NCBI GenBank assembly: GCA_963723785.1
Contig: CAVRSB010000024.1
Span: 3,288 to 67,287, forward strand
Direction of reading: 5' to 3'
DNA: 64,000 nucleotides
Source of the DNA: an uncultured Actinomycetes bacterium
Lineage (GTDB): Bacteria > Actinomycetota > Thermoleophilia > Gaiellales > JAICJC01
Notes under the pieces: model-generated
Database searches by the model: none
What the model was told of the DNA's origin: nothing
What the model saw: only the letters and a program-made list of their open reading frames with translations
Translations under genes and position numbers: made by a program
Shown: positions 6,819 to 63,421 of the stretch, one piece after another
Layout: the number at the start of each line of letters is the position of its first letter
Position numbering within the stretch: the first letter of the stretch is position 1

Positions 6819-6851
6819 GTGAATAAAAGGTGCCTGGCACCTTTTATTCAC
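6819..6851. repeat. AT-rich palindrome family, copy 1: GTGAATAAAAGGTGCC-T-GGCACCTTTTATTCAC (perfect 16-nt arms)
   Basis: Read directly from the sequence. It lies 13 nt after the trxB stop and 10 nt before the next gene. Confidence 0.95.
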
Positions 6852-6860
6852 TTCGCTACA

Positions 6861-7337
6861 GTGGGAATCGTGCGGTACTTCATCTGCCCTAACTGTTCCA
6901 CGAGGGCACTCGACGATGATGGTCGGGCCGGCCTGACCCACCAGCCGGTGGGCTGTGCCAAGTGCGGCTTCGGCTACCTGTTCGAGATTCTCGAGGACTA
7001 CTTCCCGCCCGCCGGAGCGGGTCTGGTCACGTGTGACCGCGATGCGCGGGTGCTGTCGTGCGGCAACGGCGTGTTCGAGCTCACCGGCTACTCGGAGGGC
7101 GACGTGATGGGCAAGCCGCTGCGCGACGCGTTCGGCCTCAGCGGCTTTGCCGACGACACCGACCCGATCCCCGTGGTGCTGGAGTGGGGAGTGCGAAAGC
7201 TCGACCAGCACATGACGCTGCGACACCGCTCCGGGATCGCCAAGCGAGTGCGGGTCGACCTCTTCCCCGCCTACGACGAGGACGGCGGCCTGCTGGCGTC
7301 GCTGGCCTCAGACAACGCCCTCTCCACCAGCGCCTGA
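6861..7337 (+). CDS. Zinc-ribbon plus PAS-like sensor domain protein
   Basis: The N-terminus has CPNC..(20)..CAKC. The PAS-like block is GVFELTGYSEGDVMGKPLRDAF. The track ORF starts at 6819 inside the palindrome, so GTG at 6861 or 6870 is more plausible. Confidence 0.5.
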   Translation: MGIVRYFICPNCSTRALDDDGRAGLTHQPVGCAKCGFGYLFEILEDYFPPAGAGLVTCDRDARVLSCGNGVFELTGYSEGDVMGKPLRDAFGLSGFADDTDPIPVVLEWGVRKLDQHMTLRHRSGIAKRVRVDLFPAYDEDGGLLASLASDNALSTSA

Positions 7338-7594
7338 TACCGCTCCACCACGGCCAGCTGCCGTACCCGCCGGTCGAGCAGCCGCCGCTCCGCCAGCTCG
7401 TCGACACCGGCGAACACCCCCAGCGCCTCGAGCACAGCCGCGTCGCGCCCGCCCAGCTCGTCCCGGGCGCCGTGCTCGAACCGCGCCCAGGTGATGCGGG
7501 TGCGGGCGCCGTCGATCTCGTCTCGCAGGCGCTCAGCGTGACGGCAGATGCGATCGGCGTAGAGTTCAAGTTCGATGCGGTGCATGGCGGGCAT
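7271..7594 (-). CDS. Hypothetical helical protein, last gene of the nth operon
   Basis: Track ORF of 107 aa, Arg/Glu/Leu-rich, starting 24 nt after the nth stop. No recognisable domain. Confidence 0.35.
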
Positions 7595-7618
7595 GATCCC
7601 GCCACCGGCCGTCGCGGA

Positions 7619-8284
7619 TCAACCCACGCGGCGTCGCGACACCGTCACGTCTGCGAACGCGGACGGGCACAGGTCGGAGACGACGCAGCCGGCGCAGTCG
7701 GGCTTTCGCGCCCGGCACACCCGCCGACCGTGGAAGATGAGCACGTCGGAGACCTGCAGCCACCGCTCGCGCGGGTAGAGGCGCATCAACACTCGCTCGA
7801 CCTTGACCGGGTCGTGCAGTCGAGTCAGCCGCAGCCGCCGCGCCAAGCCGACCGACGTGGGTGTCGACGGCGATCCCCTCCCGCACTCCGAAGGCGTTGC
7901 CCGACACCACCGCCGCGGTCTTGCGGCCCACCCCGGGGAGCGTCACCAGCTCGGCGGTGGAGCGCGGCACCTCACCGCCGAACCGCTCCAGGATGGCCGC
8001 GCAGCACCCGCGAATCGACCGCGTCTTCTGGCGAAAGAAGCCGGTCGGCCGGATCAGCTCCTCCAGCTCCTGCTCGGTCAGCGCCAGGTAGTCCTGGGGC
8101 GTGCGGCAGCGGCGGAACAGCTCGGCGGTGACCAGGTTCACCCGCACGTCGGTGCACTGGGCCGAGAGGATGGTCGCCACCAGCAGATCGAGCGGGGACG
8201 AGTAGTCAGCGCGATGCCGGCGTCCGGATGCTCCGCCGCCAACCGGTCCAGGATCTCGACCGCGCGCTCGCTGCGGGCGCTCAT
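7619..8284 (-). CDS. nth: Endonuclease III (two apparent frameshifts)
   Basis: The HhH-GPD block is [15 protein letters not shown] and DTHV is present. The C-terminal 4Fe-4S motif is [20 protein letters not shown] at 8284 overlaps the upstream stop (ATGA). Confidence 0.85.
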
Positions 8285-11200
8285 CCGCCCCACTCCAGTT
8301 GCTCGCCTGCGCACAGCAGGTTGAGCGCGGGACAGTCGCGACATTGCACGCCCGGCCGGGCCGGGAAGGTGCCCGCCCGGATCGCGTCGATGTCCGCCTG
8401 CAGCTCTGCCTCCAGCCGTGGGGCATCAGCCGCGGTGAACGATCGGATCGGGGTGACCTCGAGGTTCTCGAGAAACGCATAGGCGATCTCGACCTCGTTC
8501 GCCCCCGCCTTCAGGGCGGCCAGCGCATAGGTCGCAACCTGGACGCCGTAGGAGTCGTCCACCACCTGCTCGACCGAGCGCTCTCCCAGCTTGTTGGTCT
8601 TGAAGTCGACCACCAGCGCGGAGTCAGGCCGAGGCCGGGCGTAGATGTCGATGCGACCGTGGAACAGCACCCCGTCCACGTCGAAGACGAAGGCCAGCTC
8701 GCGCGTGATGTCGTCGATCCCGGCCAGCCTCGCAGCCAGCTCAGATCCGTTCCAGTTCTCCACCAGCCGACCGATCAACTCGGTGTTCTGGTCGGTCGCG
8801 GAGGGGTGCCGCACGCGCCAGCGGCCGTCGGGACGCTCCAGCTCCAGATGCACGGCGTCGCCCAGCTCGAGCGCGTCCAGACCGTCGCCCTCGACCACGC
8901 TCCCGCTCCGGCTCGGGCAATCCCAGCACCCGCTGGGCGAAGTAGCGGTAGCCGCACCGGCGATACAGGGCGAGCGCGCTGTAGGAGAGCCTGGGGCAGC
9001 GCCACCGCGGCGGCCGCCGGCGCCGGATCCAGCGCCGGCAACGAGACCACGCTGCGGCCGCCTTCGGAGAACAGCTCCAGCTGGGATCCGATCTCGGGCT
9101 GGGCGAACGTCGGCGACGGTCTCCAGCGGCTCGGGATGCCGGTCGCCCCACCCGGACTCGCAGCCGGGCGCCACCGACGTCGACGTCGCCGTCGGCATCC
9201 AGGCCGACGGACAGGGTGTTGCAGATCTGGGCGATGGTGGTGTCCTCGCCGGGATCGAACGCGCCCGAGATGATCAGGTGCCGGCGGGCGCGGGTCAGCG
9301 CCACGTACTGCAGCCGACGGCCCTCCTCCGCCCGGGCGGCATCCTCGGCCGCGGCCACGTCACTCCAGCCCAGTGCATGCTGCATCGATCCGTCCACCGG
9401 GCTGGGCGCCCGCAACGCCACCCGGCCCTGCGCGTCCACCAGAATGTCGCCGGCCTGGCGTGCCATCCGCTCGCGACCGGTGTCCACCAGCACCACCACA
9501 TCGAATTCGAGTCCCTTGGCGGCGTGCGTGGTCATCAGCACCACCGCCTGCTCGTCCTCCTCGGCGGTGGCCGCCTCGCCCTCGCGCGTCGCCAGCGACG
9601 GCCTGCTCGTCGCAGAACCCGATGAAGCCCTCCAGGTCGGGGCCGCGCAGGGCCTCGTAGCTTCCCGCCATGCGCGCGAGCTTGACCACGTTCGCCAGCC
9701 GGCGGTCGCCGTCGGGCTGCGCCAGACAGGCCAGGTCATAGTCGTGCTCGGCCACCACCAGGTCGATCAGCCGCTCCAGGCCGACCTCGCCCAGCCGGGT
9801 GGAGAGCCGCGCCAGCCGCTGCTTGAACGCGGCCACCAGCCGCTGCTCGTCGGGGCTCAGCCCCTCGGGCAGCTCGTCGCGCTCGAGCGCGGTGAAGATC
9901 GGCCGGCGCACCGCTCCCCGCCGCAGCGCCAACAGGCCGTCGTTGGAGATTCCCACCAGCGGCGAGGCCAGCACGCCCAGCAGGGCAAAGTCGTCGTAGC
10001 GGTTTCGCAGCAGGCGCAGGTAGCCGAGGATGTCGGCCACCTGCTGCTGGGCGTAGTAGCCGCCTCCAGTGGTGCGCACCGTGCGCAGCCCACGCCGCCG
10101 CAGCGCGCCCTCGTACAGCACCGCATCGGTACCGGCCTCGAACAGCAGCACCACCTGCCCGGGCAGGCACTCGCCGTCGGCGATCAGCTCGGCGATGCGA
10201 TCGGCCACCAGCCGCACCTCGCCGGCGCGCCAATGCTCCTGGTCGGAATCGAAGCTGCGCTTGTCGGCCAGAAGCAGCTCCACCCGGCCGCCGGCCGGGG
10301 GCTGCGGATCGAGTGGCCGAGGCCGCTTCCAGCGCGGCGTAGTGGTCGCCGAACACCCGCCCGAACAGCTCGTTCACGGTCGCCAGCACATGCTCGCTGG
10401 ATCGGTAGTTGCGGGTCAGCGTGACCACCTCGGCGCCGGCCTCGCGGCGACGCTCGCGATACACCGCCACGTCGGCGTGGCGGAACCGGTAGATGCTCTG
10501 GAACTCGTCGCCGACCAGGAACAACCGGTCGCCCGCGACCCGGTCGATCAGCGCCACCTGCAGCCGGTTGGTGTCCTGAAACTCATCCACCATCACCTCG
10601 GCGAACCGCTCCCGATACTCAGTCGCCAGCTCCGGCGAGCGTTCCAGCAGCTCGACTGCGCGCAACTCGAGATCGTTGAAGTCGACCAGCGACCGGCGGT
10701 CCTTGAGCTCCTGATAGCCGCGTGCGAACTCCTTCAAGAGCACGTCCAGCTGGGCCAAGTCGGAGACGGCCGCCGCATCGCACGCCGCCTGCACGAGATC
10801 CCGACGAGCCTGCTCGTAGTCAGCGCACGCGCCCGATCGGACCACCTTGAACGCCTTCAGGTCGACCAACTCGGCGGCATCGGGGCGGGTGTCCAGGAAC
10901 GCCACCAGGTCGGCGGCCTGCTGCTTGTCACACGCGGCAGCCGCTGTCCGTACGGCGTCGGCGGCAGCGTCCACGTCGGGCTCGCTGTGCGGACGCAGAT
11001 CCAGCGGCCGGCCCGCGCTTCGCAGCCGCTCGTAGGCCTCCAGCAGCAGCTCCCGCAACCGCCGCCGCGAATACGCCGCTAGCAGATCGAGCCTGCGCGA
11101 TCCGACCGCTCCACCCTCCGACAGGAACCGCTCCAAGGCATTGTCGAACGCCTCGGACTGGAGAATCCGAGCGCCCACCTCGTCGGTGACGGTGAACTGT

Positions 11201-11530
11201 GGGATCGAGCCCCGCGGCGATCGCGTGGTTTCGCAGAATCCGGGTGCAGAAGCGGTGAATGGTCGAGATCCAGGCCGAATCCACCGCCCGCGCTCGATCG
11301 AAGTCGCCGCGCAGCTCGAGCGCAGCCCGCACCCGCGCCTTCAGCTCGGACGCCGCCCGGTCGGTGAAGGTGATCACGAGGATGGCATCCAGCGACGTGC
11401 CGGCATCGATGCGACGCAGCACCCGCTCGACCAGCACCGCGGTCTTGCCCGTCCCGGCTCCCGCCGACACGAACACGTGGCCGTCGCGGCTGATCGCCTC
11501 GGCCTGCTCGGGATTCCAGTCTCGGCTCAC
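8281..11530 (-). CDS. addA: UvrD-type helicase / RecB-family nuclease subunit (AddA/AdnB-like), multiply frameshifted
   Basis: The Walker A motif is [13 protein letters not shown]. Helicase motifs include [23 protein letters not shown] and [11 protein letters not shown]. The C-terminal PD-(D/E)XK block is DFKTNK with QVATYALA, followed by [14 protein letters not shown] at 11530 overlaps the upstream stop. Confidence 0.8.
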
Positions 11531-14447
11531 GGCTTCGGCACCCGGCAGACGGTGAAGTAGGTGCACCACGAGGGACAGCGCCCGCCACGGGGATCATGGC
11601 GCACATCGCCCGCCCGAATCCGCCTGACGCACCTCGATCGCCATCGCCGAGGCGTCCTCCACGTGCTGCCAGAACGCCTCGGCATCCAGCCGGTCGTTCT
11701 TGTTCAGATGGGCGTCGCCGATCTCGGATGCCAGCACCATCCCGCGGGCCTCACGCTTCCCCGCGAGCGCCCGGTAGAGGCCCCCGATCGGCTCGATTCC
11801 GAGCAGATCGCGCAGCGCCATGATGTACAGCGGCAGCTGCAGCTTGCCCTGACGCGCGAGCTGTGCGGCCGAGTGCACGGTGGCGCCGGACTTGTAGTCC
11901 CACAACACCCCGCGCGGGGACATGCCGGGGTCCATGTCGATGCGGTCGATCGTGCCGGTGACCGCGAAATCGCCCAGCTTGAGTCCCTCCTTCAGCCCCG
12001 GAGGCGACGACGGCGCCGCCGAACCTGCACCTCGAACCGGCGCGGCACGAACTCGAGATTGAGGTTGGCCTCGACCCGCAGGAACGCCTCCAGGTCGCGT
12101 TCCAGCCCGCGTGCCAGCTCGCGCCCGCCGACCGTGTCCCCCACGCGCTGGCCGCCCAGCGCGTCGTGCAGGCAGCGCAGCATCACCGGCCAGGCCGCCT
12201 CCACCGTGTCGGGTGTGAGCCGATCAACTCCGACCTCGGCGGGGAGCTGCGCGAAGAACCGCGCCAGCGTGGCGTGGGCCACCGACCCGCGCAGTTTGGC
12301 GTCCAGCTCGAAGTCGATCTCGCCGGGTCGCAGCATCCGCTCCACAAACCAGATCGACGAGCAGTCACCGAACCGCTCGAGGTCGGTGACCGAGAACCGT
12401 TCGGTGGCCGCCAGGCCGGCGAGCACCTGTGGCGAGCGCAGCGCCGTGGAGCGCCGGTACGCCGACTGGGCGCGGCGCAGCTTGCGCTCCCAGCCCATCC
12501 CCCCGGCCATCGCGATCGCCCAGTCGGGGTCATCTCGCAGATCGCGTGCCAGCGCCCGCTGGCGGCTCGCGGTCGTCGGGAGCCTGCTCCAGCGGCCAGG
12601 TGCTGTCCGACAGGTTTCGGCGCCGCACGGGCGTGGCTGGGATCGAGCAGCCGCCGCACCTCGTCCAGGAACGGCGAGGGCTGCAGCGGCTTGCCGTCCT
12701 CGGTCGATGCCTGCCGCACCAGGTGAAGCCGCTTCCACGGCCGGGTACAGGCGGTCGCGAACAGGTGGCGGTCGAGCTCTGCCTGGTCGGTCCGGCGCAG
12801 GCCGATCTCGCTCGCCGCCTCCGCGCTCAACAGCCGCCGGTCGGCGGCCGCTCCCGGCAGGCTGCCCTCCTCCAGGCCCAGCACGAACACGGCCTGGAAG
12901 CGCCTGGTGCGGGCTCGGCGGAGCCCCAGGATGGCCACCCGACCGGGCTCGGCGTCGTCGCCGATCCGCACCGGAACGCGCGCCAGCAGATCGATCAGCC
13001 CGCCGCGATCGAGGTCGTCCAGGCCCAGCGCGCGGATCTCCTCGACCGCCCGCAACACCGCCCTGCAGGCGCGCACCGCCACCCGCCCGTGGGTGGGCAC
13101 AAAGCGGGCCTGCAGCGTGTTGGCGGCACGCACCATCTGGCTCGCCAGGCCGGCAGCGCCGGCCAGCGGGTCGGGCTCTGACATCAGCCGGTCGATGGCC
13201 GGGAAGAAGCCGTCGCCCACCAGCTCGACCACTCCCGCCCGCGTCTCGTCGTGGCCGAACACGCCCCGGCCGCGCAGGCGCCCCTCCACGAAGTCGATCC
13301 GCCGCCGGGCGATGCCCGAGAACGGGCTGCGCAGGTAGGCAAACAGCTCCGGCCGCTCGCCGCCCATCCAGCCGAACCGCAGCGCCCCGAGGAACGCGAC
13401 TGCCGAAGCCGGTCTGCGGCCAGCGGCACCCGCGCGTCGACCGAGAACGGGATGCCCAGCGGCGAGAACGCGTTCTCGAGCGCGAGCCGATGGCGCGCTG
13501 ACCGACGGCACGATCACCCCGATCTCGTCGGGGGCGATGCCGTGCCCGGATCAGCGCGAGCACCTCGGCGGCGACCAGCTCGGCCACGCGCCTGCGACCG
13601 GCCCCCTCCAGGTACACGACCGATCCGTCCTCGGCGGGGGCGGCGGCGCCGGGCGCGTCGGTGAACAGCGTGCGCTCGAGGTGGGCCAGCACCGGCGAGT
13701 CGAAGTGCGCAGCGGGCGGTAGCTCGATCACCTCGGGCGAGGCGCTGCTGAGCGCCTCAACCAGCGGCGAGACCGCGGCGTACGCCGGGCGGCCGACCTC
13801 GTAGGGCAGCGACACGGTCACGTCCACCCGCGCTGCCAGCGCCAGCAGCGCCCGTACCTGGGCGGTGGTCATGTCCTCGAATCCGTAGGCCAGCACCGGA
13901 CGCTCGTCCCAGGCCTCCAGCCGCTGCTCCAGCAGCTGCGCCGCCCGGGCACGCGTTCCCAGCCGGTCGCGGCCCAGCCCGAGCCGGTCGCACTCGCGCG
14001 CGGTAGGCCCGTACCAAGCCGTACAGCTCAGCCCTCGCTGCCGGCCGCCTTGCGGTGGGGTCGATCATGCCCGCCGCGAGTTCGTCCGCCATCCCGGCCA
14101 GCGCATCGGCAAAGCCCGAGAAGCGGGCCGAGACGGCCACCTGATCGAGTTCGGCGGAGGCCGCCAGGCGCCGGAAGATCAGCCGCCGCTGCACGTCGGC
14201 GAGCGTCGTTTGTGTGATCGCCGCAGCGCTCCAGCACGTCGTCGAAGAGCGTGTCGAAGGTGCCCACCCGACCGCCCAGCAGCGCGCCACGGCGGCGCAG
14301 CACGTCGTGCTCGAAGGCCTCGACGTCGGGGCGGTTGGGCACGATCAGGAACGGATCGGACCCAGCGTCCACGAAAGCCAGGAAGCGCTCCTGGAGAAAC
14401 CCGATCTTTCCGCAGTTCGCCGGCCCGAGAACGAGGGCGAGCGGCAT
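11527..14447 (-). CDS. addB: AddB-like nuclease subunit with degenerate P-loop, multiply frameshifted
   Basis: The N-terminus is [16 protein letters not shown], a degenerate Walker A. The C-terminal nuclease block is DYKSG with [10 protein letters not shown], ending in [16 protein letters not shown]. It sits immediately upstream of addA with a 4-nt overlap. Confidence 0.7.
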
Positions 14448-15783
14448 CAGGCTAATCCTAGATGTGATCTTGGCGGGTGCTGGAGCACCCGGCCGTCGAC
14501 GCCACCGGGGTCGAGCCCGAGCGCGTCCAGCACCGTTGCCGCCACGTCCTGAACGTCGGCGACGCCCTCGGGGTGACTGCCGCGCACCAGCACGAAACGC
14601 GTTGTCCCGCGTATGCATGCCGGTCAGCGGCCCCTTGCCGGTGAGCTCGGGGTTGGCCATCGCCCCCTTCAGGTCGGAGCCGTCGTGCGACACCAGCACG
14701 AGGTCAGGACCGCGGTCGGAGATACGGGCCGGCGAAGGCCTCCTCGCGCACGGCCACCTCGCTGTCACGAACGGCAGGCCTTCTGCCCACGCCCGCAGCT
14801 CGTCGCGCACCGCGTGGTACTCGGAGGCGGGCACGATGCCGCCGGGCTCGCTGCCCTCCAGGTTCAGGTAGAGCCGGCCGGGATCCATGCAGTAGGCGCG
14901 ACTGCCCGCCGGCACGATCGAGGCGATCGAACGGGCCGGCTCCTGCAGCTGGAGCCAGCCGTCGCGCTCCAGCCAGCGGTTGACGTACACCTCCTGGTCG
15001 AGGCGGCAAAAGCCGTGGTCAGAGAGCAGCACGAGGGTGCAGTCGTCCGGCAGCCGGTCGACCAGCGCCCCCACCGACCGGTCGACCAGGTCGTAGTAGG
15101 CATGGAACCGGCCTGCCCACGGCTCCTCGCCCCGCTCCATCTGCTCCCACAGGAAGTGGTGCAGCCGATCGGTGCCCGTGAAGGCGGCGAAGAAGAGGTC
15201 GCACTGCTCGCGTTCGAGCAGGTCGACACAGCACCCGCTCGCGGGCCTGGTGGTGAGCGACGAGCTGCTCCCAGAATGCCTCCAGGTCGGTGCGCCCGAG
15301 CCCCAGGTCGACGTCGATCAGATAGCCGCGCTCCTCCAGCCACGGCACCAGCTCGGGCGGCTGCACCGAGCGCTCCAGCGACGGGCGAGACGAAGCCCGA
15401 GATCAGCACCCCGTCGAGTCGGCTGGGCCGGGTAGGTGCCCGGCACATTCACCACCACCGAGCGCATGCCGGCCTCGGCCGCCCGCTGCCACACCGCCGG
15501 CTCGGCGATCGTGTGGACGTTGGTGAACTCGAGCTCCCAGGTGCCGCGGCTTGCGCTCGACGAACCCGAACACGCCGTGGCGGCCGGGATTGGTGCCGGT
15601 CGAGGCGCTCGCCCACGACACGGACGAGATCGGCGGCAGCGGAGCGCGGGCATCCATCAGCGTCCCGGCTGACGCCAGCGCCGCCAGGTGCGGCAGGTGG
15701 CCGTCCGCGATCCGGGACCGCAGGTAGCCGGCGGGCGTCCCGTCCAGCCCGATCACGGCGGCCCGAGGGCCGCGCCGCTTCAC
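14447..15783 (-). CDS. Alkaline-phosphatase-superfamily phosphodiesterase / nucleotide pyrophosphatase family protein, frameshifted
   Basis: The blocks are AVIGLDGTPAGYL, SSVSWASASTGTNPGRHGVFGF, LLSDHGF and VLVSHDG. It is a clear paralogue of 47474..48973. GTG at 15783 overlaps the fdxA stop. Confidence 0.7.
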
Positions 15784-16058
15784 GCGGGGGGCTTCGCCTC
15801 GTTCACGAGCCGGTTGATGACGTCGGCGTCGGGAAAGGCGTAGTTGATCTTGACGAACGGCTCCCACTTGTCCGGAAGCGCATCCTCGGGATAGATGGCC
15901 TCCACCGGGCACTCCGGCTCACAGGCACCGCAGTCGATGCACTCCTCGGGATCGATCACCAGCATGCGGTCGTACTCATGAATGCAGTCCACCGGGCACA
16001 CGTCGATGCAGGATTTGTCCTTCTCGTCGATGCAAGGCTCGGCGATGATGTATGTCAC
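15780..16058 (-). CDS. fdxA: 7Fe-type ferredoxin
   Basis: Intact 92-aa ORF carrying CIDEKDKSCIDVCPVDCI and CIDCGACEPECP. Confidence 0.9.
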   Translation of the reverse strand: MTYIIAEPCIDEKDKSCIDVCPVDCIHEYDRMLVIDPEECIDCGACEPECPVEAIYPEDALPDKWEPFVKINYAFPDADVINRLVNEAKPPA

Positions 16059-16116
16059 TGAAGATCCTCCGTGGAACGAACTGAGATCGCGACCGCGATT
16101 GTAGCGGCGACGCCTG

Positions 16117-16797
16117 TCACACCGCGTGCACCACCCGATCGACCATCGCGTTTGCGACCCACATGCGATCGAAGAACATGGCCAGCCCGACCAGCACCAA
16201 CAGTGCTCCGGAGACGACTCTGATGGCCTGATAGTGGTCGCGCACGGTGCGGGCCACCGACATCACCTTGCCGAAGGCTACCCCGGCCAGCAGAAACGGG
16301 ATCGCCAGCCCTGCCGAGTAGGCGGCCAGCAGCGCCGCCCCCGACGCAGCGGTGCGACTCGACCCAGCCAGCAGCAGCAGCGAGGCCAGCACCGGCCCCA
16401 CGCACGGCGTCCAGCACAGCCCGAAGGCGCCGCCCAACAGCAGGGACGAGCCGGAGAGGCGGGCGGGCTGAACGGCGGGTTGCAGCGAGCGCTCCAGGAT
16501 CGGCACCCGCAAGAGCCCCATCAGCACGAAGCCCATGGCCACGATCAGGATGCCGCCCAGATGGATCAGGCTGGTGCGGTAGTCGGCGAACCGCCCACCC
16601 AGGATGGCGGCCCCGACACCCAGCGCGATGAAGACCGACGAGAATCCGAGCACAAACGGCAGGCCGGCCCGCACCGCTGCCCGGGGCGACGCACCGCGGG
16701 CGCCGATGGCCGACAGGTAGGCCGGCACCAGGGGCAGCACGCAGGGCGTCACGAACGACACCAGCCCGGCGACGAACGCGGCCGGTGCAAGGCTCAT
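16117..16797 (-). CDS. ccdA: Cytochrome c biogenesis thiol-disulfide transporter CcdA (DsbD family)
   Basis: Intact 226-aa polytopic ORF with the two conserved Cys-Pro sites (FVTPCVLPLVP and GLCWTPCVGP). Confidence 0.9.
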   Translation of the reverse strand: MSLAPAAFVAGLVSFVTPCVLPLVPAYLSAIGARGASPRAAVRAGLPFVLGFSSVFIALGVGAAILGGRFADYRTSLIHLGGILIVAMGFVLMGLLRVPILERSLQPAVQPARLSGSSLLLGGAFGLCWTPCVGPVLASLLLLAGSSRTAASGAALLAAYSAGLAIPFLLAGVAFGKVMSVARTVRDHYQAIRVVSGALLVLVGLAMFFDRMWVANAMVDRVVHAV

Positions 16798-17258
16798 TCG
16801 AGCGCGGCCAGATCGGCGTCGATACGTCGCTCCAGCGCCGGATCGATGTCACCGCCGCCGCCACCCTCGCCGGGTGGGCCCCTCCGCGACCGCGACCACA
16901 TCACCGCCAGGCCTCCGACCACCGCCGCGCCGGCCACCAGCACGGCCGCCGGCACCAGCCAGGCCAACAGGTCGAAACCGCGCTTGGGCGGAGCCGCCAG
17001 GATCTCCGGCCCGAACTGCGACACCAGCGTCGATCGCACCCGATCACCGCTCCAACCGGCCGCACACCAGCTGTCGAGGTGGGTGCGCACCTGGTTTGCG
17101 AACGGTGAGCTGGACTGATCGAGCCGCTCATGGCAGACGATGCACATCAGCTGGGTCTGCATGTCGGTCTGGGTCCAGCCGTTGCACGCCATCGCCGCGG
17201 CCGGGAACGCGAGTGACGCACAGGCCACCAGCCCGACCGCGAGTGCGCGCAGTCTCAT
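16794..17258 (-). CDS. CcmH/NrfF-like cytochrome c maturation protein
   Basis: ATG at 17258 gives the signal peptide MRLRALAVGLVACASLAFPAAAMA. It has a CIVCHERLDQSSSPFA motif and a C-terminal TM helix. Both neighbours overlap it with ATGA. Confidence 0.7.
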   Translation of the reverse strand: MRLRALAVGLVACASLAFPAAAMACNGWTQTDMQTQLMCIVCHERLDQSSSPFANQVRTHLDSWCAAGWSGDRVRSTLVSQFGPEILAAPPKRGFDLLAWLVPAAVLVAGAAVVGGLAVMWSRSRRGPPGEGGGGGDIDPALERRIDADLAALE

Positions 17259-17872
17259 CCCTGCTCCGCCAGCAGCGGGTTCAGCACCTTGTCCAGGTCG
17301 GGGCCAGTGACGACGCCGTTGAACAGATGTCGCACGACGCCTTTGCGGTCGACCACATAGGTCACCGGCAACCCGGTGCCGTAGCCCCACCGCTGGGCGA
17401 TCGAACCGGTGTCGTGAACCAGCGTGTAGCGCTGACTGTAGGTCTTGGCGAACTCCCGCGCAGCGCCGGTGAAGTCATTCGTGTCGACCCCGATCACCCG
17501 CACGCCCCGGCGGCCGTACTCGTGCACCGCCTGGTTCAGTACCGGCGCCTCGTCCTGGCAGCCGCTGCACCACGACGCCCAGAAGTTCACCACCACAACC
17601 TTGCCGCGCATGTCGGCCAGCGACGCCTGGCCGTTGCCGTCCAAGAGCGGCGCGGTGAAGTCCGGAGCAGACGGCGAGTTGCCGTCCAGCATCTGCGCAT
17701 AGACAGTTGTTTGGTTGGCGAGCAGGCCGCGGGCGAAGAGCCCGATCATGCCGAGCAGAACGAGCGCGGCCACCACCTGGAGGATCAGTCTCACGCCCCG
17801 TGGCACAGACGGATCGTAGATGGTTTCGGCCCCGCGTTCGCGCGGTATGACCCTCAGCCCAATCCCGCCCAC
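17255..17872 (-). CDS. resA: TlpA/ResA-family thiol-disulfide oxidoreductase
   Basis: An N-terminal TM helix is followed by a thioredoxin fold with VVNFWASWCSGCQDEAP. Confidence 0.85.
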   Translation of the reverse strand: MGGIGLRVIPRERGAETIYDPSVPRGVRLILQVVAALVLLGMIGLFARGLLANQTTVYAQMLDGNSPSAPDFTAPLLDGNGQASLADMRGKVVVVNFWASWCSGCQDEAPVLNQAVHEYGRRGVRVIGVDTNDFTGAAREFAKTYSQRYTLVHDTGSIAQRWGYGTGLPVTYVVDRKGVVRHLFNGVVTGPDLDKVLNPLLAEQG

Positions 17873-17908
17873 ATACTGGGGCGGCCCACGCGTCGCCTCC
17901 CGAGGGTG

Positions 17909-18067
17909 CTATGCCCCCGGGCCGGAATTTGTGAACGAACGGCTGTATGGGCGCCACGGAACGCGCTCCCACTCAGCATGGTGGCACATCGGGCAGGACG
18001 GCAGCGACCGATACACCGTCACGCCGTATCCGCACTGCAGGCAGCGAAACTCGCCTTTTGCCCGCAT
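17909..18067 (-). CDS. Small zinc-ribbon protein (about 52 aa)
   Basis: The internal ATG of track ORF 17909..18124 gives MRAKGEFRCLQCG..(12)..CPMCHH. Confidence 0.4.
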   Translation of the reverse strand: MRAKGEFRCLQCGYGVTVYRSLPSCPMCHHAEWERVPWRPYSRSFTNSGPGA

Positions 18068-18142
18068 TCCCGCACCCCAGCCAGTACCTGCCGTCTCGTC
18101 CACGTGATTCGCAGCAGACCCCATTCGTACCCTCGTTTCCCC

Positions 18143-18165
18143 GTCCGGGCCGGAATGGCCCGGAC
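18143..18165 (-). terminator. GC-rich hairpin (9-bp stem GTCCGGGCC/GGCCCGGAC, 5-nt loop) about 50 nt downstream of the PAP2 gene; no U-tract
   Basis: The inverted repeat was read directly from the sequence. Confidence 0.3.
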
Positions 18166-18215
18166 AGGTAGATTAGCCGCGCCGGCGATTCAGCGTGCGC
18201 AAGTTCACAAGAATT

Positions 18216-18784
18216 TCAGCTCGCTTCGGATGCCTCGCTTGCGATCGGCTCAACACTCGGGCGACGGCGAGCGGCGCGTATCCGGCAACCCATGCGGAAG
18301 GCTGCATTCAGCAGCAGCCCGAGCGCCACTCCCAGAGCCGCCCGACGATCACGTCCGACGGATAGTGCACGCCCAGGTACGGCCGCGACAGCGCCACCAG
18401 ACCCGCGTACACCAGTAACGGAATCCTCCAGCGGGGTGCGAAGCCCGCGAGTACGACTGCGCAGGTGAACGACGTCAACGCGTGCCCACTGGGCATGGAC
18501 GGATCGGGCGGCAACGCGATCAGGGCGTGCACGTTGTGGTCTCCCAGCGGCGGTCGGGGCCGGTCGATGACAGCTTTGAAGACGGCGTCAAGCCGGCCCG
18601 CGAGGAACATTGCGAGCACCGTCATGATCACCGGCGAGAGCCGGCGGAGGGTGATCGTGAACACGATCGCGATCACCAGAAAGACCAGGTTGTGAGAAAA
18701 CGAGAGCAGCTTTGCGATAGGCGTGACCACCGGCCAATCGAGACCGGAGAGGGCCTCGACGCCTGCTCTATCGATCCTGTCCAC
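18216..18784 (-). CDS. PAP2-family phosphatase (membrane); probable frameshift near 18335 extends the C-terminus
   Basis: The motifs are KAVIDRPRP, PSGH and SRPYLGVHYPSDV. The alternative frame after SDVIVG continues as a TM helix (ALGVALGLLLNAAF) to a stop at 18216. Confidence 0.75.
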
Positions 18785-18809
18785 TCGCCCAGTACTCTAG
18801 GGTGGGCCC

Positions 18810-19409
18810 ATGACCGTACAGAAAGCAACGCTCAAGCCGTACCTCGAGGAGATCCGCCAGTGGGTCGCAGAGGGACGCACGGATATCTGGATCGCCCATG
18901 CCCTCAACTCGACGCCGGCCTCGATCTCGGCCTTCCGATCGGCCAACGGCATTCTGCGCCGAGAGCTGGCGGCCGAGCGGCTGGGAGCGGCGGTGCCGCC
19001 GCCGATCGCGCCGCCGGACGCCCCGCCCGAGGAGCTGCAGGTAAAGCCACGCCGACGCTCACGCGCAAAGAAGACTCCCGATCCGACGCCGCTCTCGGCG
19101 GCAGCCGAAGCGGCCGCCGGGCCACAAACCACCCCTCCGCCGGTTCCGGTCGCTGCGACGGCGAGTTCCGAGGAGGGCACCACACCGGCCCCCGCCAAGC
19201 GCCGCCGACGAGGCGGCCGCGGTCGCAACAAGAAGCCGCAGCAGGGCTTCGAGGCCACGCTCGACACGGGGGATGAGGGCTACGGCTTCTGGCTCGACGG
19301 CGCGGTCAAGGACGACCCCGTGTTCGCCGAGCACTGGGCGAGCAGGCGCGGGCTGATCGTGCGCATCGAAGCCGACCAAATCGTGATCAGAGCAGATGAC
19401 CGTGAATAA
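18810..19409 (+). CDS. Hypothetical protein: N-terminal HTH-like segment, long Pro/Ala/Arg-rich disordered centre, small C-terminal domain
   Basis: Intact 199-aa ORF. The basic run is KRRRRGGRGRNKK. Its TAA stop (19407-19409) lies inside palindrome copy 2. Confidence 0.5.
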   Translation: MTVQKATLKPYLEEIRQWVAEGRTDIWIAHALNSTPASISAFRSANGILRRELAAERLGAAVPPPIAPPDAPPEELQVKPRRRSRAKKTPDPTPLSAAAEAAAGPQTTPPPVPVAATASSEEGTTPAPAKRRRRGGRGRNKKPQQGFEATLDTGDEGYGFWLDGAVKDDPVFAEHWASRRGLIVRIEADQIVIRADDRE

Positions 19410-50457: not shown

Positions 50458-50495
50458 TATCTGCCACAACCAATCGACCTTTGGAGCACCTGAAC

Positions 50496-51678
50496 ATGCG
50501 TGTACTCATCCTCGGTGGCGACGGGTATCTCGGCTGGCCCACCGCAATGCGATTCTCCGGCAAGGGCCACGATGTCGCCGTCGTCGACAATTTCAACAGG
50601 CGCCGCTGGGTCGAGGGTCAGGGCGGCGATTCGCTGACGCCGATCGCGACGCTGACCGAGCGAGTGGCGGCATGGCGCGAGGTGTCGGGGAAGACCATCG
50701 ACGTGCACGTGGGCGACATCGCCGAGGGCACCTTCGTAGCCGACATCGTGCGCGACTATGCCCCCGACACGATCATCCACTACGGCGAGCAGCCGTCGGC
50801 GCCGTGGTCGATGCAGTCGCATCGACAACGCCGTCGAGACGCAGCAGGACAACGTGATCGGCACGCTCAAGCTGCTGTGGGCGATGCGCGAGCACGCGCC
50901 CGACGCGCACCTGATCAAGCTCGGGACGATGGGCGAGTACGGCACGCCCAACATCGACATCGAAGAGGGCTTCATCGAGATCGAGCACAACGGCCGCCGC
51001 GACGTGCTGCCGTTCCCCAAGGTACCGGGCTCGCTCTACCACCTGTCCAAGGTGCACGACTCGCACAACATGCACTTCGGCTGCCGCGTGTGGGGCCTGC
51101 GGGCGACCGACCTCAACCAGGGCGTGGTGTACGGCATCGAGACGCCCGAAACCAAGCTGGACGACCGGCTGGCGACCCGATTCGACTATGACGAGTCGTT
51201 CGGCACCGCACTCAACCGGTTCTGCGTGCAGGCCGTGATCGGACACCCACTGACGGTGTACGGCAAGGGCGGCCAGACCCGCGGGTTCCTCAACATCGTC
51301 GACACGCTGCAGTGCGTGGAGCTGACCGCGGACAACCCGGCCGGGCGCCGGCGAGTACCGGGTGTTCAACCAGTTCACCGAGGTAGTTCACCGTCGGCCG
51401 ACCTGGCCGAGAAGGTGCGGCATGCGGGCGGAGAGATCGGGATCGAGGTGCAGGTGCAGAACCTCACCAACCCGCGGTTCGAGGCCGAGGAGCACTACTA
51501 CAACCCGACCCACACGCGGCTGCCCTCGCTGGGGCTTCAGCCGACCCTGCTTTCGGAGACGCTGATCGAATCCACCCTGGGCGTCATCGACCGATACAAG
51601 TCGCGCGTGATCGCCGGCGTGATCGACCCGTCCACCCGGTGGCAGTCGTCGCCGCTGGCAGGTCAGCCGGCTCGGTAG
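50496..51678 (+). CDS. sqdB: UDP-sulfoquinovose synthase (SQD1/SqdB type), frameshifted near 50800 and twice near 51350-51400
   Basis: Long near-identical blocks to plant and cyanobacterial SQD1, from memory: GGDGYLGWPTA, SLTPIA, KLGTMGEYGTPNIDIEEG, YHLSKVHDS, ATDLNQGVVYG, FGTALNRFCVQA, TVYGKGGQTRGF, VFNQFTE and NPRFEAEEHYYN. GGAG lies 9 nt before the ATG. Confidence 0.9.
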
Positions 51679-51682
51679 CTCC

Positions 51683-52735
51683 GTGGGGTTGACGCCACTT
51701 CGATGGGTGGGCCTGATCGTAGCGATCGTGTTCGCCGTGTTGTCGATCCGCTCCTACCGTCAGGGCAAGATCGGAAACGGCGACCTGCTGGTGCGGATGG
51801 TCGTGTTCGTGCTCCCGCTGCTGGTGCTGTCGTTGGTGCCCGGCGCGCTCAGCTGGGTGTTCGACGAGCTGTCGTTCCGCAAGGGCGGCGGCCGCCAGAT
51901 CATCGGCGCCACGGTGCTCGCGGTCGGCATCCTGTACCTGTTTGCCTTCACTCTGGCCGGCCGCAACGAGCGCGTCCGGCGCGATCTCACGCGCCTGATC
52001 GAGAACCTCGCACTGGAGCAGTTCCGCGGTACCGGCCACCCCGAGCAGTTCGCCGAAGGGGTGGCGGTGGTGGTGCCGGCCTACAACGAGGCCGACAACA
52101 TCGGCCACGTGCTGTCGGCGCTGCCGGAAGAGGTGTGCGGCAAGGCGCTGCATGTGATCGTGATCGATGACGGCTCGTCCGACGACACCACCGACCGGGC
52201 GCGGGCAGCGGGCGCGGCGGCGGTGCGGCTGCCGCTCAACCGCGGCCAGGGCGCAGCGCTTCGCACCGGGTATCGGCTGGCGCTGATCACCGGGGCCGAC
52301 GTGGTGGTGACCATGGACGCTGACGGCCAGCATCAACCGTCGGAGCTGTCGCGGCTGGTCGCCCCGATCGTGGCCGACGAGGCCGACGTGGTCAACGGCT
52401 CACGGGTGCTGGGCGATGCCGATCCGTCTCACGCCGCCAGGGAGATGGGCATCAAGCTGTTCGCCCAGCTGCTGTCGCTGCTGACGTGGAGCAAGATCAC
52501 CGACCCGGCCTGCGGGTATCGCGCGGTGCGCACCGAGGCCCTGCGCGGCCTGGAGTTCCGCCAGGATCAGTTCCACAACTCGGAGTTCATCATCGAGGCC
52601 TCCAAGCAGAAGCTGCGCATGATCGAGGTGCCGGTCACCGTCGCCCGGCGGCTGTCGGGCACGTCCAAGAAGCCGGCGCACTTCCGCTACGGGATGGGCT
52701 TTGCCAATGCGCTGGTGCGAGCGTGGCTCCGGTAG
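51683..52735 (+). CDS. GT2-family glycosyltransferase with N-terminal 3-TM (DUF2304-like) extension
   Basis: Intact 350-aa ORF with VVVPAYNEADNI, VIDDGSSDDT and TMDADGQH. Confidence 0.85.
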   Translation: MGLTPLRWVGLIVAIVFAVLSIRSYRQGKIGNGDLLVRMVVFVLPLLVLSLVPGALSWVFDELSFRKGGGRQIIGATVLAVGILYLFAFTLAGRNERVRRDLTRLIENLALEQFRGTGHPEQFAEGVAVVVPAYNEADNIGHVLSALPEEVCGKALHVIVIDDGSSDDTTDRARAAGAAAVRLPLNRGQGAALRTGYRLALITGADVVVTMDADGQHQPSELSRLVAPIVADEADVVNGSRVLGDADPSHAAREMGIKLFAQLLSLLTWSKITDPACGYRAVRTEALRGLEFRQDQFHNSEFIIEASKQKLRMIEVPVTVARRLSGTSKKPAHFRYGMGFANALVRAWLR

Positions 52736-53661
52736 CTCGCGGTCCGGTCGTCCACTGGGACGACGTCACCCCGCGCACGCGTGAGGTCGGCTACATCAAG
52801 GCCGACTGGTCGGCATCTCGGCTACAAGGCGGGCAGCGTCACCGTCGGCGCCAACCGGCTGCAGATCCCACCCGGCCGCATGCCCAACCCGCCCCACCTG
52901 CACGGAGCCGAGGAAGAGATCTTCTACGTGCTGTCCGGATCGGGGCTCTCATGGCAGGACGGCGAGACGTTCGAGGTGCGGGCCGGCGACTGCATCGTGC
53001 ACGTGGCCAACACCAAGGCGCACACGCTCCGCGGCGGTGACGACGGTCTGGACGTGCTGGTGTTCGGTCAGCGGGTGCCGGTGGAGCTGTGCAACCTGCC
53101 CAGGGCGGAGACCGGCTGGCTGGGTCCCCGCTGGGTGCCGACAGCGGGGCCCGATCCCTGGCACGCAGACGCCGAGCTCGGGCCGCCCGACTTCCCCGCG
53201 CCCAGCCCTCGGCCCAGCAACATCGTGAACGTCGCCGATGCACACGGTGACCGACGATCAGCGCGAGACGGTGGGCCGGAAGGTCAGGCGGCTCGGGAGC
53301 CGAGGCAGGGTCGGCCAAAACCGGGCTGCGGCACGTCGAGGTGACCCCGGCAAGCTCAACGGCCCGCCCCACTGCCACTCGGCGGAGGAGGAGCTGATGG
53401 TCGTGCTGGGCGGGGAGGGAACACTGCTTCTGGGCGACGACGAGATCGCGGTGCGCGCCGGCAGCGTGGTGTCGCGGCCGGCCGGCACCGGGCGTCGCCC
53501 ATGCCTTCCGCGGCGGCGAGCAGGGACTCGAGCTGCTGCTGTACGGCACCCGCGATACCAACGACATCGCCTACTTCCCCCGCTCCGGCAAGATCTCGCT
53601 GCGCGGGATCGGCATCACCGGCCGGATCGAGCCGCTCGGCTACTGGGACGGCGAGGAATGA
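52723..53661 (+). CDS. Bicupin protein, frameshifted
   Basis: There are two cupin cores: PPHLHGAEEEIFYVLSGSG..VRAGDCIV and PPHCHSAEEELMVVLGGEG..VRAGSVV. It ends ..GYWDGEE with a TGA at 53659-53661. Confidence 0.6.
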
Positions 53662-61032: not shown

Positions 61033-61120
61033 ACGGGTACTGCAAGGTGCTATTACACCGACCCCCACCAGGTGGGCTCATCGCTGCCGTATTCTCCCGG
61101 GGTCGAATGAGTACCACCCC

Positions 61121-62045
61121 GTGACCCGCCAACCCTCGGGACTCCTCGTGATCGCTCCCGAGGTTCAGCGAGCGCTGACCCGCTCCGAACCCGTGGTGGG
61201 GCTGGAGTCGTCGCTGATCGCCCACAACCTGCCGGCAGCCGTCGGGCCGGATGTCGCCCGCGAGTGCGAGCAGCGGGTGCGAGACGCGGGAGCGATGCCG
61301 GCCACGATCGCGGTGATCGACGGCCAGATTCACGTCGGCATCGACAGCGAGCAGATGGAACGGCTCGCGGTCGAGCCGCAGGTGCGCAAGGTCGGCCCGC
61401 GCGACCTGGGCGCGCGTCACGATCTCGGGCATGTGCGGCGCGACCACGGTCGCCGGCACGATGGCGGTGTGCCGGGTTGCCGGCGTGCACTTCATGGCGA
61501 CCGCGGGCATCGGCGGCGCTCATCGCGGCTGGGCAACGTCGGGTGACGTCTCCGCCGACGTGCTGGAGCTCGGCACCTCACCGGTGTGCGTGGTGTGCTC
61601 GGGCGCCCGCTCGTTTCTGGACACCGCGGCCACGCTCGAGCTGCTCGAGACCTACGGCGTGCCGGTGATCGGCTACGGCATCGACCACTTCCCGCTCTAC
61701 TACGCCCGCTCCAGCGGTCGCGAGCTGGTCGACCGGGCCGACGACCCCGAGACGCTGGCGGCCGTCACCGCCGCCCACTGGGCGCTCTCGCGTTCATCGG
61801 CGATCATCGTGGCAAACGCGATCGCAGAGGAGGCGGCGCTGTCCGCCGACGAGCTCGAGCCGCTGATCGCCGAGGCGATGGCCGCCGCCGCCTCGGCCGG
61901 TGTGGACGGCATCGACCTGACGCCGTTCGTGCTGCAGCGCCTGCACCTGGAGACCGATGGGCGCACGCTGGCCGCCCACCGCCGGCTGGTGGCCGACAAC
62001 GCAGAGCTGGCCGCACAGATCGCCGCCGCCTACTACACGCGCTGA
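61121..62045 (+). CDS. psuG: Pseudouridine-5'-phosphate glycosidase (one or two frameshifts near 61400-61440)
   Basis: The blocks are VVGLESSLIAH, ATIAVIDGQIHVG, TTVAGTMAV, FATAGIGGAHRG and DVSADL-type DVSADVLEL. Confidence 0.8.
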
Positions 62046-62046
62046 G

Positions 62047-63330
62047 CTACCCCCGCGGCTTGAGCACGTACAGCCGCCCGAACCCGACCACCACCAGCCG
62101 CCCCGCGGCGGCGATCGCCGGCGAGTACTTGCCGTCGTGGAACTGCCACACCAGCCGCCCGTTGCCGGGGTTGTAGCCATACACATGGCCGGAGACGCTG
62201 CCGCTGGCGCCACGGTCGGCGACGTACACCAGCGGTCCGATCACGACCGGCGAGGACAGCGTGTTGTAGGCCAGTTGGTGACGCCACAGCTCGCTGCCGG
62301 TGCGGGCGTCGAGGGCGACGAACGTGCCCAGCGACGAGGTGGCGAACACCCGGCCATCGGCAACGGCGGGAGAGCCGTACGCCCAGCCGGGCAGAGTGGT
62401 CGACCAGGCCTCTTCGCCGGAGTTCGCGTCGAACGAGTACACCTTGCCGTCGGTGTTGCCGACATACACGCGGCCGTAGGCGACCGCCGGTGTGGAGTAG
62501 AAGCCGCCGGAGCGATAGCCGCTGGAAAGACCGGCTGTCTGCTTGCGCCAGATCAGCCCGCCGGTGGTCGCGTTTAGGCAGTACATCACTCCCGCGTAGT
62601 CGCCGAAGTAGAGCCGGCCGTTGACCAGCGCCGGGCCATGCTTGACCGCCCCTGAGGTCGCGTACGTCCACTTGACGCGGCCGGTGTCGGCGGACACCGC
62701 CACCATCGCGCCCGACAGCTTGCCGATGTAGACGGTGCCGTGCCACACCGCCGGGGAGCCCTCGAGGGCGCTATTGGTCTGAAGCCTCCATACCTGGCTG
62801 CCATTTGAGCGGCGCAACTTGAGCAGGCCCGATCCCGAAGGCAGGTACACGAACTTGCCGGCCACCGCCGGCGAACCCAGCGCGGGCAGGCTCGATCCGG
62901 CGCGTAGGTGACGATGCCACAACACCGTGCCCTTGAACACGTCGAAGGCGGTGGCGTTGCCGGCGTCCGACAGCTCGTAGAGGACGCCGTCGGCATAGCC
63001 CGGCGGGTACTCCAGAAGCCCGCCGCCGCGGGCCGACCAGCTGGTCTTGTACGGCGGGTGGATGCTTGCCAGATCGGTGGCGTCGCGGGTGCGCGCGAGG
63101 GTGCGCCCGTAGAACGGCCACGGCTGGCCGACCTGGGGCACCGCAGGGTTGGTTGCCGTGGACGTGGGAGGGGGCGGAAGCGGGTCGGCGGTGCTGGTGA
63201 ACGGCACTTTGTCGCCGTTTCGCACATCCCCCACCCGCTGGGTGGCGACCCAGTAGCCGACGATGGACAGGCCGATGCCAACGACCAGCACCGCGGCACC
63301 GCAGATCAACCAGATTTTTCGTCGCGACAT
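62047..63330 (-). CDS. PQQ-like beta-propeller repeat protein with N-terminal membrane anchor
   Basis: ATG at 63330 gives MSRRKIWLICGAAVLVVGIGLSIVGYWV. Repeated ..G.V(Y/F)....G.L.A.D..TG...W motifs follow. The track ORF extends to 63387, next to palindrome copy 6. Confidence 0.75.
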   Translation of the reverse strand: MSRRKIWLICGAAVLVVGIGLSIVGYWVATQRVGDVRNGDKVPFTSTADPLPPPPTSTATNPAVPQVGQPWPFYGRTLARTRDATDLASIHPPYKTSWSARGGGLLEYPPGYADGVLYELSDAGNATAFDVFKGTVLWHRHLRAGSSLPALGSPAVAGKFVYLPSGSGLLKLRRSNGSQVWRLQTNSALEGSPAVWHGTVYIGKLSGAMVAVSADTGRVKWTYATSGAVKHGPALVNGRLYFGDYAGVMYCLNATTGGLIWRKQTAGLSSGYRSGGFYSTPAVAYGRVYVGNTDGKVYSFDANSGEEAWSTTLPGWAYGSPAVADGRVFATSSLGTFVALDARTGSELWRHQLAYNTLSSPVVIGPLVYVADRGASGSVSGHVYGYNPGNGRLVWQFHDGKYSPAIAAAGRLVVVGFGRLYVLKPRG

Positions 63331-63388
63331 CGCGCCGCAGACTACCCGCCGCTGGTTGGAGAGCGGCTGGACCCCGCACGCCGCCACC

Positions 63389-63421
63389 GTGAATAATTCG
63401 TGCCTGGCACCAATTATTCAC
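63389..63421. repeat. AT-rich palindrome family, copy 6: GTGAATAATTCGTGCC-T-GGCACCAATTATTCAC (one arm mismatch)
   Basis: Read directly from the sequence. It lies between two co-directional minus-strand genes, and the upstream gene's TAG stop (63421-63423) abuts the right arm. Confidence 0.95.

Follow-up and report, generated by a model that had tools for sequence, protein, structure and literature searches.

Six copies of a short palindromic element with A/T-rich arms were located at gene ends in a 64,000-nucleotide stretch of DNA from an uncultured Actinomycetes bacterium (assembly GCA_963723785.1, contig CAVRSB010000024.1, positions 3,288 to 67,287 of the forward strand), which is referred to throughout as the window. 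The copies, numbered 1 to 6, lie at 6819-6851, 19402-19433, 23332-23362, 42117-42149, 46101-46133 and 63389-63421, where an earlier note made from the sequence alone had placed them. Pattern searches recovered all six and gave 0 matches in 100 dinucleotide-preserving shuffles, the number of copies expected in the window by chance being 0. The core GGTGCCWGGCACC, with ≤1 mismatch allowed, occurred in the window only in these six copies, and a profile hidden Markov model built from 121 family members returned exactly six window matches at E ≤ 10. In a general repeat search the palindromes were the sole genuine repeat family of the window, in agreement with the same note. Because the G+C content of the window is 0.64-0.74, their A/T-rich arms are conspicuous. 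On the evidence given below, the palindromes very probably belong to a dispersed repeat family of the repetitive extragenic palindrome (REP) kind.

The unit is built, in order, of the outer arm GTGAATAA, a linker, the core GGTGCC-W-GGCACC, the complementary linker and the outer arm TTATTCAC. The linker of 1-2 nt is complementary across the arms, is the sole difference between subtypes and is used here to name them. The centre CCWGG was present in 6/6 window copies, as had been described, with W being T in five and A in copy 2. The description of all copies as perfect or near-perfect inverted repeats with 15-16 nt arms around one central base needs minor correction: copy 1 (AA/TT subtype) is a perfect 16+1+16 palindrome, copies 3, 4, 5 and 6 carry 1-3 arm mismatches, and copy 2 has unequal linkers, T (1 nt) on the left and AA (2 nt) on the right. 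Copy 3, of 31 nt, belongs to the C/G subtype, and copies 4 (3 arm mismatches), 5 and 6 (1 core mismatch) belong to the TT/AA subtype. A seventh, vestigial copy, of which only the core half TTGGTGCCA is left, was recognised at 23413-23431 as what remains of an ancestral doublet's upstream unit, at the end of mazG; its counterpart is intact in the related locus L110 and truncated in L109. The mazG open reading frame (ORF) passes through this vestige and terminates in copy 3.

Window genes were assigned using an in-house codon-usage gene caller, Pfam scans and the gene calls of a contig 98.4% identical to the window. By these assignments a gene 3′ end touches each of the six copies, with copies 2, 4 and 5 in convergent gaps and copies 1, 3 and 6 in co-directional gaps, an arrangement that had been read correctly from the sequence. 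Copy 1 lies 12 nt past the stop codon of a trxB-like gene (6804-6806), with a PAS-domain gene downstream. Copy 2 is flanked by an unnamed gene and a DUF501 operon, which converge on it, and both stop codons fall within its arms (TAA at 19407-19409 on the plus strand, TGA at 19430-19432 on the minus strand). Copy 3 lies between mazG and eno (ATG at 23300) and holds the mazG stop codon, TAA at 23359-23361 (minus strand), in its arm. At copy 4, the lytR_cpsA_psr stop codon (42099-42101) is 15 nt upstream, and the convergent partner is a zinc-ribbon gene; as called on the 98.4%-identical contig, this gene has the arm TGA (window 42146-42148) as its stop codon. The stop codon of a DUF4352 gene (46095-46097) is 3 nt upstream of copy 5, and the convergent pyridoxal-phosphate-dependent decarboxylase gene has its stop codon, TAA at 46126-46128, in the arm. 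At copy 6, the TAG of a minus-strand gene (63421-63423) overlaps the last base of the element, and the other flank is the start (ATG at 63330) of a PQQ/BamB-like gene.

Downstream of each co-directional copy, a −10-like hexamer of the form TANNNT stands 7-9 nt ahead of the start codon: TACAGT at 6857-6862 (plus strand), 5 nt past copy 1; TAGTAT at 23310-23315 (minus strand), downstream of copy 3 and before eno; and TAGTCT at 63339-63344 (minus strand), downstream of copy 6. A TANNNT motif just before the start codon is the arrangement found in leaderless actinobacterial promoters, and judged by sequence the three hexamers would be consistent with leaderless or near-leaderless promoters. Copies 1, 3 and 6 would therefore lie between transcription units and not within operons.

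For the census, the pattern TGAATAAN{1,3}GTGCCWGGCACC was searched in one genome per species (GTDB). At least 107 loci matched; nearly all of those listed were metagenome-assembled genomes (MAGs) of uncultured Actinomycetes, Gaiellales or Thermoleophilia, and many among them stemmed from one Danish soil survey. The locus set (handles with the prefix L) was chosen by motif, save L108-L117, which were chosen through proteins. The listed loci and the window, 0.9 Mb in all, contained 147 copies, both arms being present in 133; per-genome copy numbers are lower bounds, two MAGs having at least 37 and at least 28 copies, and the hundreds per genome suggested in the earlier note are an extrapolation. 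Window positions 44763-52736 are 94% identical to one matched MAG, and the MazG homologues at 58-63% identity carry the source label Gaiellales. The arm octamer GTGAATAA/TTATTCAC was found inside elements in 192/197 occurrences, the other 5 being edge or variant copies, so that the arm is not an independent motif. Its host range appears restricted to a clade of uncultured soil Actinomycetota that have high-G+C genomes and are allied to Gaiellales. The proposal in the earlier note that such sequence conservation points to a dispersed element resembling REPs or miniature inverted-repeat transposable elements (MITEs), or to a protein target, is strongly supported by the at least 107 loci in related MAGs, together with the discrete subtypes, the doublets, the empty and filled orthologous sites and the subtype switching described below.

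The further remark that the palindrome was not recognised as a described family agrees with the searches made. In the window, only a tRNA passed the Rfam gathering threshold, and matches over copy 5 were at chance level (E ≥ 0.48, far below the gathering scores). Literature searches on the core sequence, and on palindromic, REP or REP-associated tyrosine transposase (RAYT) repeats in Gaiellales or Actinobacteria, returned nothing relevant, and Actinobacteria are absent from a survey of tagged REPs (PMC3733652). A scan of viral contigs with the motif gave 0 matches, and blastn of the C/G consensus against the PLSDB plasmids gave no match. The GGTGCCWGGCACC core, set between A/T-rich flanks in hairpins such as AATAAGGTGCCAGGCACCTTATTC, was also seen in unrelated MAGs (L046, 5026-5101, a Planctomycetota MAG; L032, 890-940, an unclassified MAG; L060, 1342-1363), which may reflect convergence, contamination or a wider family.

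Six linker types were counted, namely C/G (49 copies), AA/TT (21), AT/AT (12), CC/GG (11), TT/AA (8) and AC/GT (4), and the sets were lineage-specific, with C/G and AT/AT in one MAG, C/G and AA/TT in another and CC/GG in distant MAGs. Across 69 distinct 33-nt copies, 95.4% of cells were paired. The linker columns covary (AU/CG/UA in 37/13/11 and AU/UA/CG in 21/21/20 sequences), which was matched in 0/500 shuffles, more distant MAGs carry the variant core GGGGCC/GGCCCC, and the unit varies in length from 31 to 33 nt; because of these three features a hairpin, of RNA or of single-stranded DNA, is favoured over a duplex site for a dimer. Either strand of the single-stranded unit is predicted to form a hairpin of 15-16 bp with a GC-rich top and an A/U-rich base. 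Predicted RNA folding energies were -20 to -24 kcal/mol for bare units; when flanks were included they were -20 to -35 kcal/mol (z-scores -3 to -6). The centre base, always A or T, is the only asymmetry and therefore marks orientation. Both orientations are common, and the bias is weak, at ~2:1 (p about 0.01, several tests having been run): A exceeds T by 37:16 on the co-directional sense strand and by 43:22 on the locally G-rich strand, counted over the loci of all 147 copies. This bias may reflect a replication-linked mechanism.

Two variations of the unit were observed in addition. Relatives without the AT-rich arms have core-only palindromes, likewise at gene ends (L112, 11162-11194; L115, 3650-3675 and 11272-11297), for example GGTGCCTGGCACC-GGTAC-GGTGCCAGGCACC and the 28-nt CCGGTGCCAGGCAC|GTGCCTGGCACCGG, and the GC core may for this reason predate the AT arms. 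A 10-11 nt arm is duplicated in tandem in L073 (~1963-1995) and L074 (~5890-5925), as in CACCATTTATTCAC-CATTTATTCAG and GTGAATAACG-GTGAATAACG, which suggests replication slippage at the hairpin.

Location statistics were based on in-house gene calls in the motif-selected loci, with the expectation derived from intergenic base pairs. Convergent gaps held 67 copies (17.7 expected), co-directional gaps 53 (66 expected) and divergent gaps 8 (44 expected), corresponding to ~4-fold enrichment in convergent and ~5-fold depletion in divergent gaps (chi-square p about 1e-37). Only 5/133 copies lay inside genes, though 85% of the DNA is coding, and 128/133 were extragenic. The outer arm GTGAATAA holds TGA and TAA in two reading frames, and among the 187 gene 3′ ends facing an element the stop codon was the arm's TGA (44) or TAA (33) in 77; the third, stop-free frame of the arm is read through by only ~3 genes. 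Since the arm is so often superimposed on the stop codon, it supplies the stop. In co-directional gaps the upstream stop lay in the arm in 24/53 cases and within 20 nt in another 11, and the median distance from element to next start was 75 nt; the element is thus anchored at the upstream stop. At one site (L038 ~5100 and L086 ~400) an identical protein end, Q-Y-E-stop, is differently encoded: one MAG has TAC GAG TAG with the element after it, the other has TAT GAA TAA formed by the element's arm, and an 8-nt deletion would turn one form into the other. Such a case hints that some gene C-termini may have been derived from older element arms.

Comparison of orthologous sites gave several kinds of evidence for turnover and mobility. 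In L064 an empty site has the convergent stops TGA-G-CTA, and in the filled L013 the TGA and TCA of the element stand at those positions; a second empty/filled pair is L028 and L107. The site of copy 2 is element-free in L114, L115 and L116 and occupied in L110, L109 and the window. In its outgroups (58-67% MazG identity) the convergent stops are 1-4 nt apart, as TAG-G-TCA, TAG-AGTT-CTA and TGA-CCG-CTA; in L110 the native TGA is followed by 10 nt and then a C/G-type element; and in the window and its 98.4%-identical relative the arm TGA lies exactly over the native TGA, the protein end YYE* being kept. No target-site duplication was found at filled compared with empty sites (L013/L064; L114, L115 and L116 compared with L109 and the window). 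At 92-94% genome identity, the subtype was switched with identical flanks in L016/L105, L038/L086 and window copy 5/L102, the L102 ortholog of the copy-5 site carrying a C/G-type copy. One site is occupied by a doublet in L073 and by a single copy in L090. Among 18 close pairs, the doublets mostly combined a C/G type with a 33-nt type, ~46-48 nt centre to centre, with a weakly conserved spacer of ~14 nt.

In distant MAGs, the palindrome was seen within 159/228-nt tandem composite units alongside other hairpins (L042, 1989-2580; L101, 199-830; L003, 4390-4945; L100, 4900-5190); the palindromes there are of the CC/GG or AC/GT type and are bordered by additional conserved sequence, for example CCAGGGTGG and GGCCGCAGGCCGT. 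These composite arrays are mosaics like bacterial interspersed mosaic elements (BIMEs). Turnover is much faster for the units than for the genes around them, and the pattern matches the behaviour of REP, BIME and REPIN elements. For RAYT and IS200 enzymes, phmmer with E. coli RayT and IS200 TnpA sequences as queries gave a best E of 0.34 among 10,060 six-frame ORFs of the 0.9 Mb, a weak test in that the sample amounted to a few percent of each genome. Where two elements bracketed genes, these were ordinary ones, e.g. gluconolactonase-like or of a two-component system, and none was a transposase. Mobilisation by an HUH/RAYT-type enzyme is regarded as possible, with the balance tilting to the doubtful side.

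For a role at gene ends, the layout proposed earlier, that of a bidirectional terminator, was found as described: on each strand an A-rich arm leads into a GC stem closed by a triloop, and a U-rich arm follows. Gene ends without an element were predicted to fold no better than coding controls, and those with an element ~6 kcal/mol better despite lower G+C. The mazG|eno junction was compared across lineages. The element-free L113 has an unrelated GC hairpin, CCGGGCC-GCC-GGCCCGG, directly past the mazG stop, L115 has a core-only palindrome, and the ingroup has the AT-armed element; a -10-like hexamer stands 9-10 nt before the eno ATG in all lineages and is kept as TATCAT/TAGTAT in relatives at 64-99% MazG identity (L109-L115). 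The order of hairpin and then promoter is thus conserved at this junction, and the element occupies the hairpin position in the ingroup. The chance that the element would function as a gene-end terminator or stabiliser is put at about even. A barrier to 3′-exonucleases, as proposed for REPs, or a partial attenuator would fit equally well.

Taken together, the observations are read, with slightly more confidence than doubt, as those of a REP/BIME-like mobile palindrome family that serves as a gene-end hairpin. Units would be inserted at gene 3′ ends, singly or as doublets of unlike subtypes, with a favoured site between convergent genes whose ancestral stops lay 1-4 nt apart. To the host the element would be a portable gene-end hairpin: it would separate transcription units as a bidirectional terminator or insulator, protect the mRNA 3′ end as a barrier, or do both. 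Its spread would occur in trans, through an enzyme or a recombination process specific to the hairpin. What the data show directly is the family with its taxonomic range, location bias, stop-codon overlap, arm covariation, empty and filled sites, subtype switches and doublets; that RNA is terminated or stabilised, and how units are mobilised, is inferred. A bolder version is unlikely: a self-spreading gene-end cassette, in the form of a perfectly symmetric palindrome with stops for both flanking genes and a bidirectional terminator or insulator hairpin, domesticated as the main structured 3′-end signal of a high-G+C actinobacterial lineage and spread by a route other than the RAYT-GTAG system, for which either a new enzyme specific to the hairpin or gene conversion of one copy by another, with the hairpin as template, would have to be supposed.

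Several points weigh against a mobile family with a gene-end function. The core stem alone (5 bp and triloop) is weak, at -5.6 kcal/mol, and a U count of 5 or more over the 8 nt past the core is reached only by the AA/TT (6) and AT/AT (5) subtypes; the commonest subtype, C/G, has 4 U, as do TT/AA and CC/GG. A consensus terminator scan of window positions 1-20000 did not flag the elements there, and found 10 other sites (5.6 +/- 2.3 expected), none of them convincing. With a stop codon in the stem, the 5′ arm would lie under any ribosome terminating there. Conservation of the primary sequence goes far beyond the requirements of a terminator. G.U and A.C mismatches (4 and 10) showed no sense-strand bias, and therefore gave no strand-specific sign of selection at the RNA level. 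The symmetry of the arms may be kept by hairpin-templated correction of DNA during replication and not by selection, a possibility suggested by what is known of quasipalindrome mutagenesis. The loci were picked for the motif, gene calls were in-house and the assemblies contain frameshifts. The ~1.1 Mb of DNA sampled yielded no transposase, a weak test.

A rival reading is a purely selfish REP/REPIN element without host function, copied by a single-copy RAYT-like HUH tyrosine transposase encoded elsewhere and accumulating at gene ends only because selection removes insertions elsewhere. Such an origin would account for the discrete subtypes, lineage-specific sets, doublets, composite arrays, rapid turnover and empty/filled sites without duplication, as well as for conservation well past structural need, and the ~2:1 centre-base bias on G-rich and sense strands would suit a mechanism tied to single-stranded DNA in replication; termini that supply stops are already known for GTAG REPs (PMC3733652). 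Yet the family has no GTAG or CGTC tag, its symmetric unit offers no obvious oriented cleavage site, and no RAYT/IS200-like ORF was met in the sampled DNA, the last again being a weak test. The unrelated hairpins at mazG|eno in element-free relatives point to a niche at the level of the host, and the enrichment in convergent gaps is ~4-fold over the available intergenic space. Selfish DNA alone is thus considered improbable, with a minor but real share of the probability. Recognition of the RNA by a dedicated binding or processing protein, such as an RNase III-type enzyme or a 3′-end binder, in place of termination would make sense of a 15-16 bp duplex lying immediately 3′ of coding regions, with arm and core conserved beyond the needs of pairing. 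It is given a low probability, since no candidate protein is known, the sense strand shows no wobble bias and the data also fit recognition at the DNA level.

Recognition of duplex DNA by a dimeric protein (nucleoid-associated, a regulator or a roadblock) would be in keeping with the strict dyad symmetry and the strongly conserved outer octamers, and the outer arms, if joined, would read TGAATAATTATTCA, which is similar to the ARG-box consensus, an ARG box being rejected on half-site spacing. The distance between the outer half-sites varies, however, between 31 and 33 bp, linker covariation is not required by a duplex-binding protein, the sites lie at 3′ ends and are depleted in promoter-bearing divergent gaps, and no solo arms occur, with 192/197 octamers within elements; such a site is very improbable. 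Barely credible are paired DNA-uptake sequences (DUS) like those of Neisseria, or immobile terminators that arose independently at each site. A short conserved motif paired in inverted orientation at gene ends does look like a DUS pair, but the arm octamer is essentially never found alone or in genes, and core and linker are conserved too. Independent origin by point mutation fails because orthologous sites differ by unit-sized indels of 24-33 nt and by subtype switches with identical flanks.

A mobile palindrome family serving as a gene-end hairpin would thus remain the preferred account. What appears to be new is the family itself, which is robustly established with clear comparative evidence: it is REP-like but has no tag, is symmetric, brings stop codons and occurs in Gaiellales-related Actinomycetota. 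Phenomena of this general kind are familiar. If the hairpins end or insulate transcripts, a compact genome would gain its gene-end signals wholesale from a mobile repeat, stop codons included; element-free relatives have almost no convergent intergenic space, their stops being 1-4 nt apart. If the reading is true, REP-like elements would be extended to an abundant uncultured soil actinobacterial order, and a symmetric, untagged counter-example to the GTAG/RAYT model of palindrome spread would be provided. In practice, the motif can serve to mark the lineage of these MAGs, and gene and stop-codon prediction in them should mask it or model it.

Other features of the window were recorded. Frameshifts split or fuse core genes at 5863-6806 (trxB-like), 20602-22018 (pyk), 22406-23300 (eno), 23359-24141 (mazG) and 34971-37258 (tatD/ksgA/ispE). 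These genes are intact in the 98.4%-identical contig (L108/L109), of which the own decarboxylase gene is split and intact in the window. The frameshifts look like indel errors of long-read assembly rather than pseudogenes, and they affect the ORF-based reading of stop positions. A tRNA-Gln(UUG) gene lies at 34444-34515 (minus strand). A small gene like a MazE/AbrB-type antitoxin, called as PF04014 in the near-identical contig, lies at ~38840-39140 (plus strand) beside metG-tatD-ksgA-ispE.

A number of known systems were considered and rejected. A MITE derived from an insertion sequence (IS) was set aside on the lack of a direct duplication, the unit length of only 31-33 bp and the absence of an IS with such ends from the sampled DNA. 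The -24 element of sigma-54 promoters (TGGCAC) was rejected on the wrong spacing to -12; sigma-54 is not known from this phylum. Integron attC sites were rejected for want of GTTRRRY/RYYYAAC boxes, and housekeeping genes flank the elements; dif/Xer sites were rejected on spacing, clustered regularly interspaced short palindromic repeats (CRISPR) for lack of a regular 60-75 nt period, and CRP, Rex and ARG boxes on half-site spacing that is wrong or variable.

Among systems that do share features, Neisseria DUS inverted pairs and Correia elements are dispersed hairpin repeats at gene ends that can affect transcript ends. Correia elements are about 100-150 bp long, with a TA duplication and IHF or promoter features; in the present family neither that size nor TA, IHF or promoter features were seen, and unlike DUS its arm motif did not occur by itself or within coding sequence. 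In E. coli, bidirectional intrinsic terminators have been described genome-wide at convergent gene pairs. The element resembles them in having an A-tract, a GC stem-loop and a U-tract on both strands and in its place between convergent genes or transcription units, but its core stem is short, its U-tract is interrupted (UUAUU), stop codons lie inside the stem, and a near-identical sequence recurs at many unrelated sites.

With REP, BIME and REPIN elements the family shares extragenic palindromes of 20-40 bp in high copy at gene 3′ ends, occurrence as singles, unlike-type pairs and mosaic arrays, subfamilies per genome, rapid turnover and absence of target-site duplication. In contrast to the REPs and BIMEs of Enterobacteria and Pseudomonas, its units lack a GTAG tag or unpaired tail, are symmetric and near-perfect with the centre base as the lone asymmetry, and have AT-rich arms in a genome of ~70% G+C. 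The GTAG (GT[AG]G) tag was absent from the 147 copies, the consensus ends GTGAATAA...TTATTCAC being paired and symmetric, and the CGTC tag was absent from consensus and copies. Tagged REPs, stem-loops of 20-40 bp whose defining feature is an unpaired GTAG or CGTC tag, were found in eight phyla in a 2013 survey (Di Nocera et al., PMC3733652), Actinobacteria not among them. They occur singly or clustered, often give flanking ORFs a TAG stop and, in the GTAG class, are linked to RAYT transposases (PMC3733652); termination and mRNA stabilisation have been proposed as roles of REPs (PMC3733652, PMC3337134). The likeness to GTAG and CGTC REPs thus extends to a terminus that is often the stop codon of a flanking ORF and to some members inside ORFs, whereas in the present family each of the two arms carries TGA and TAA and can close either flank on either strand.

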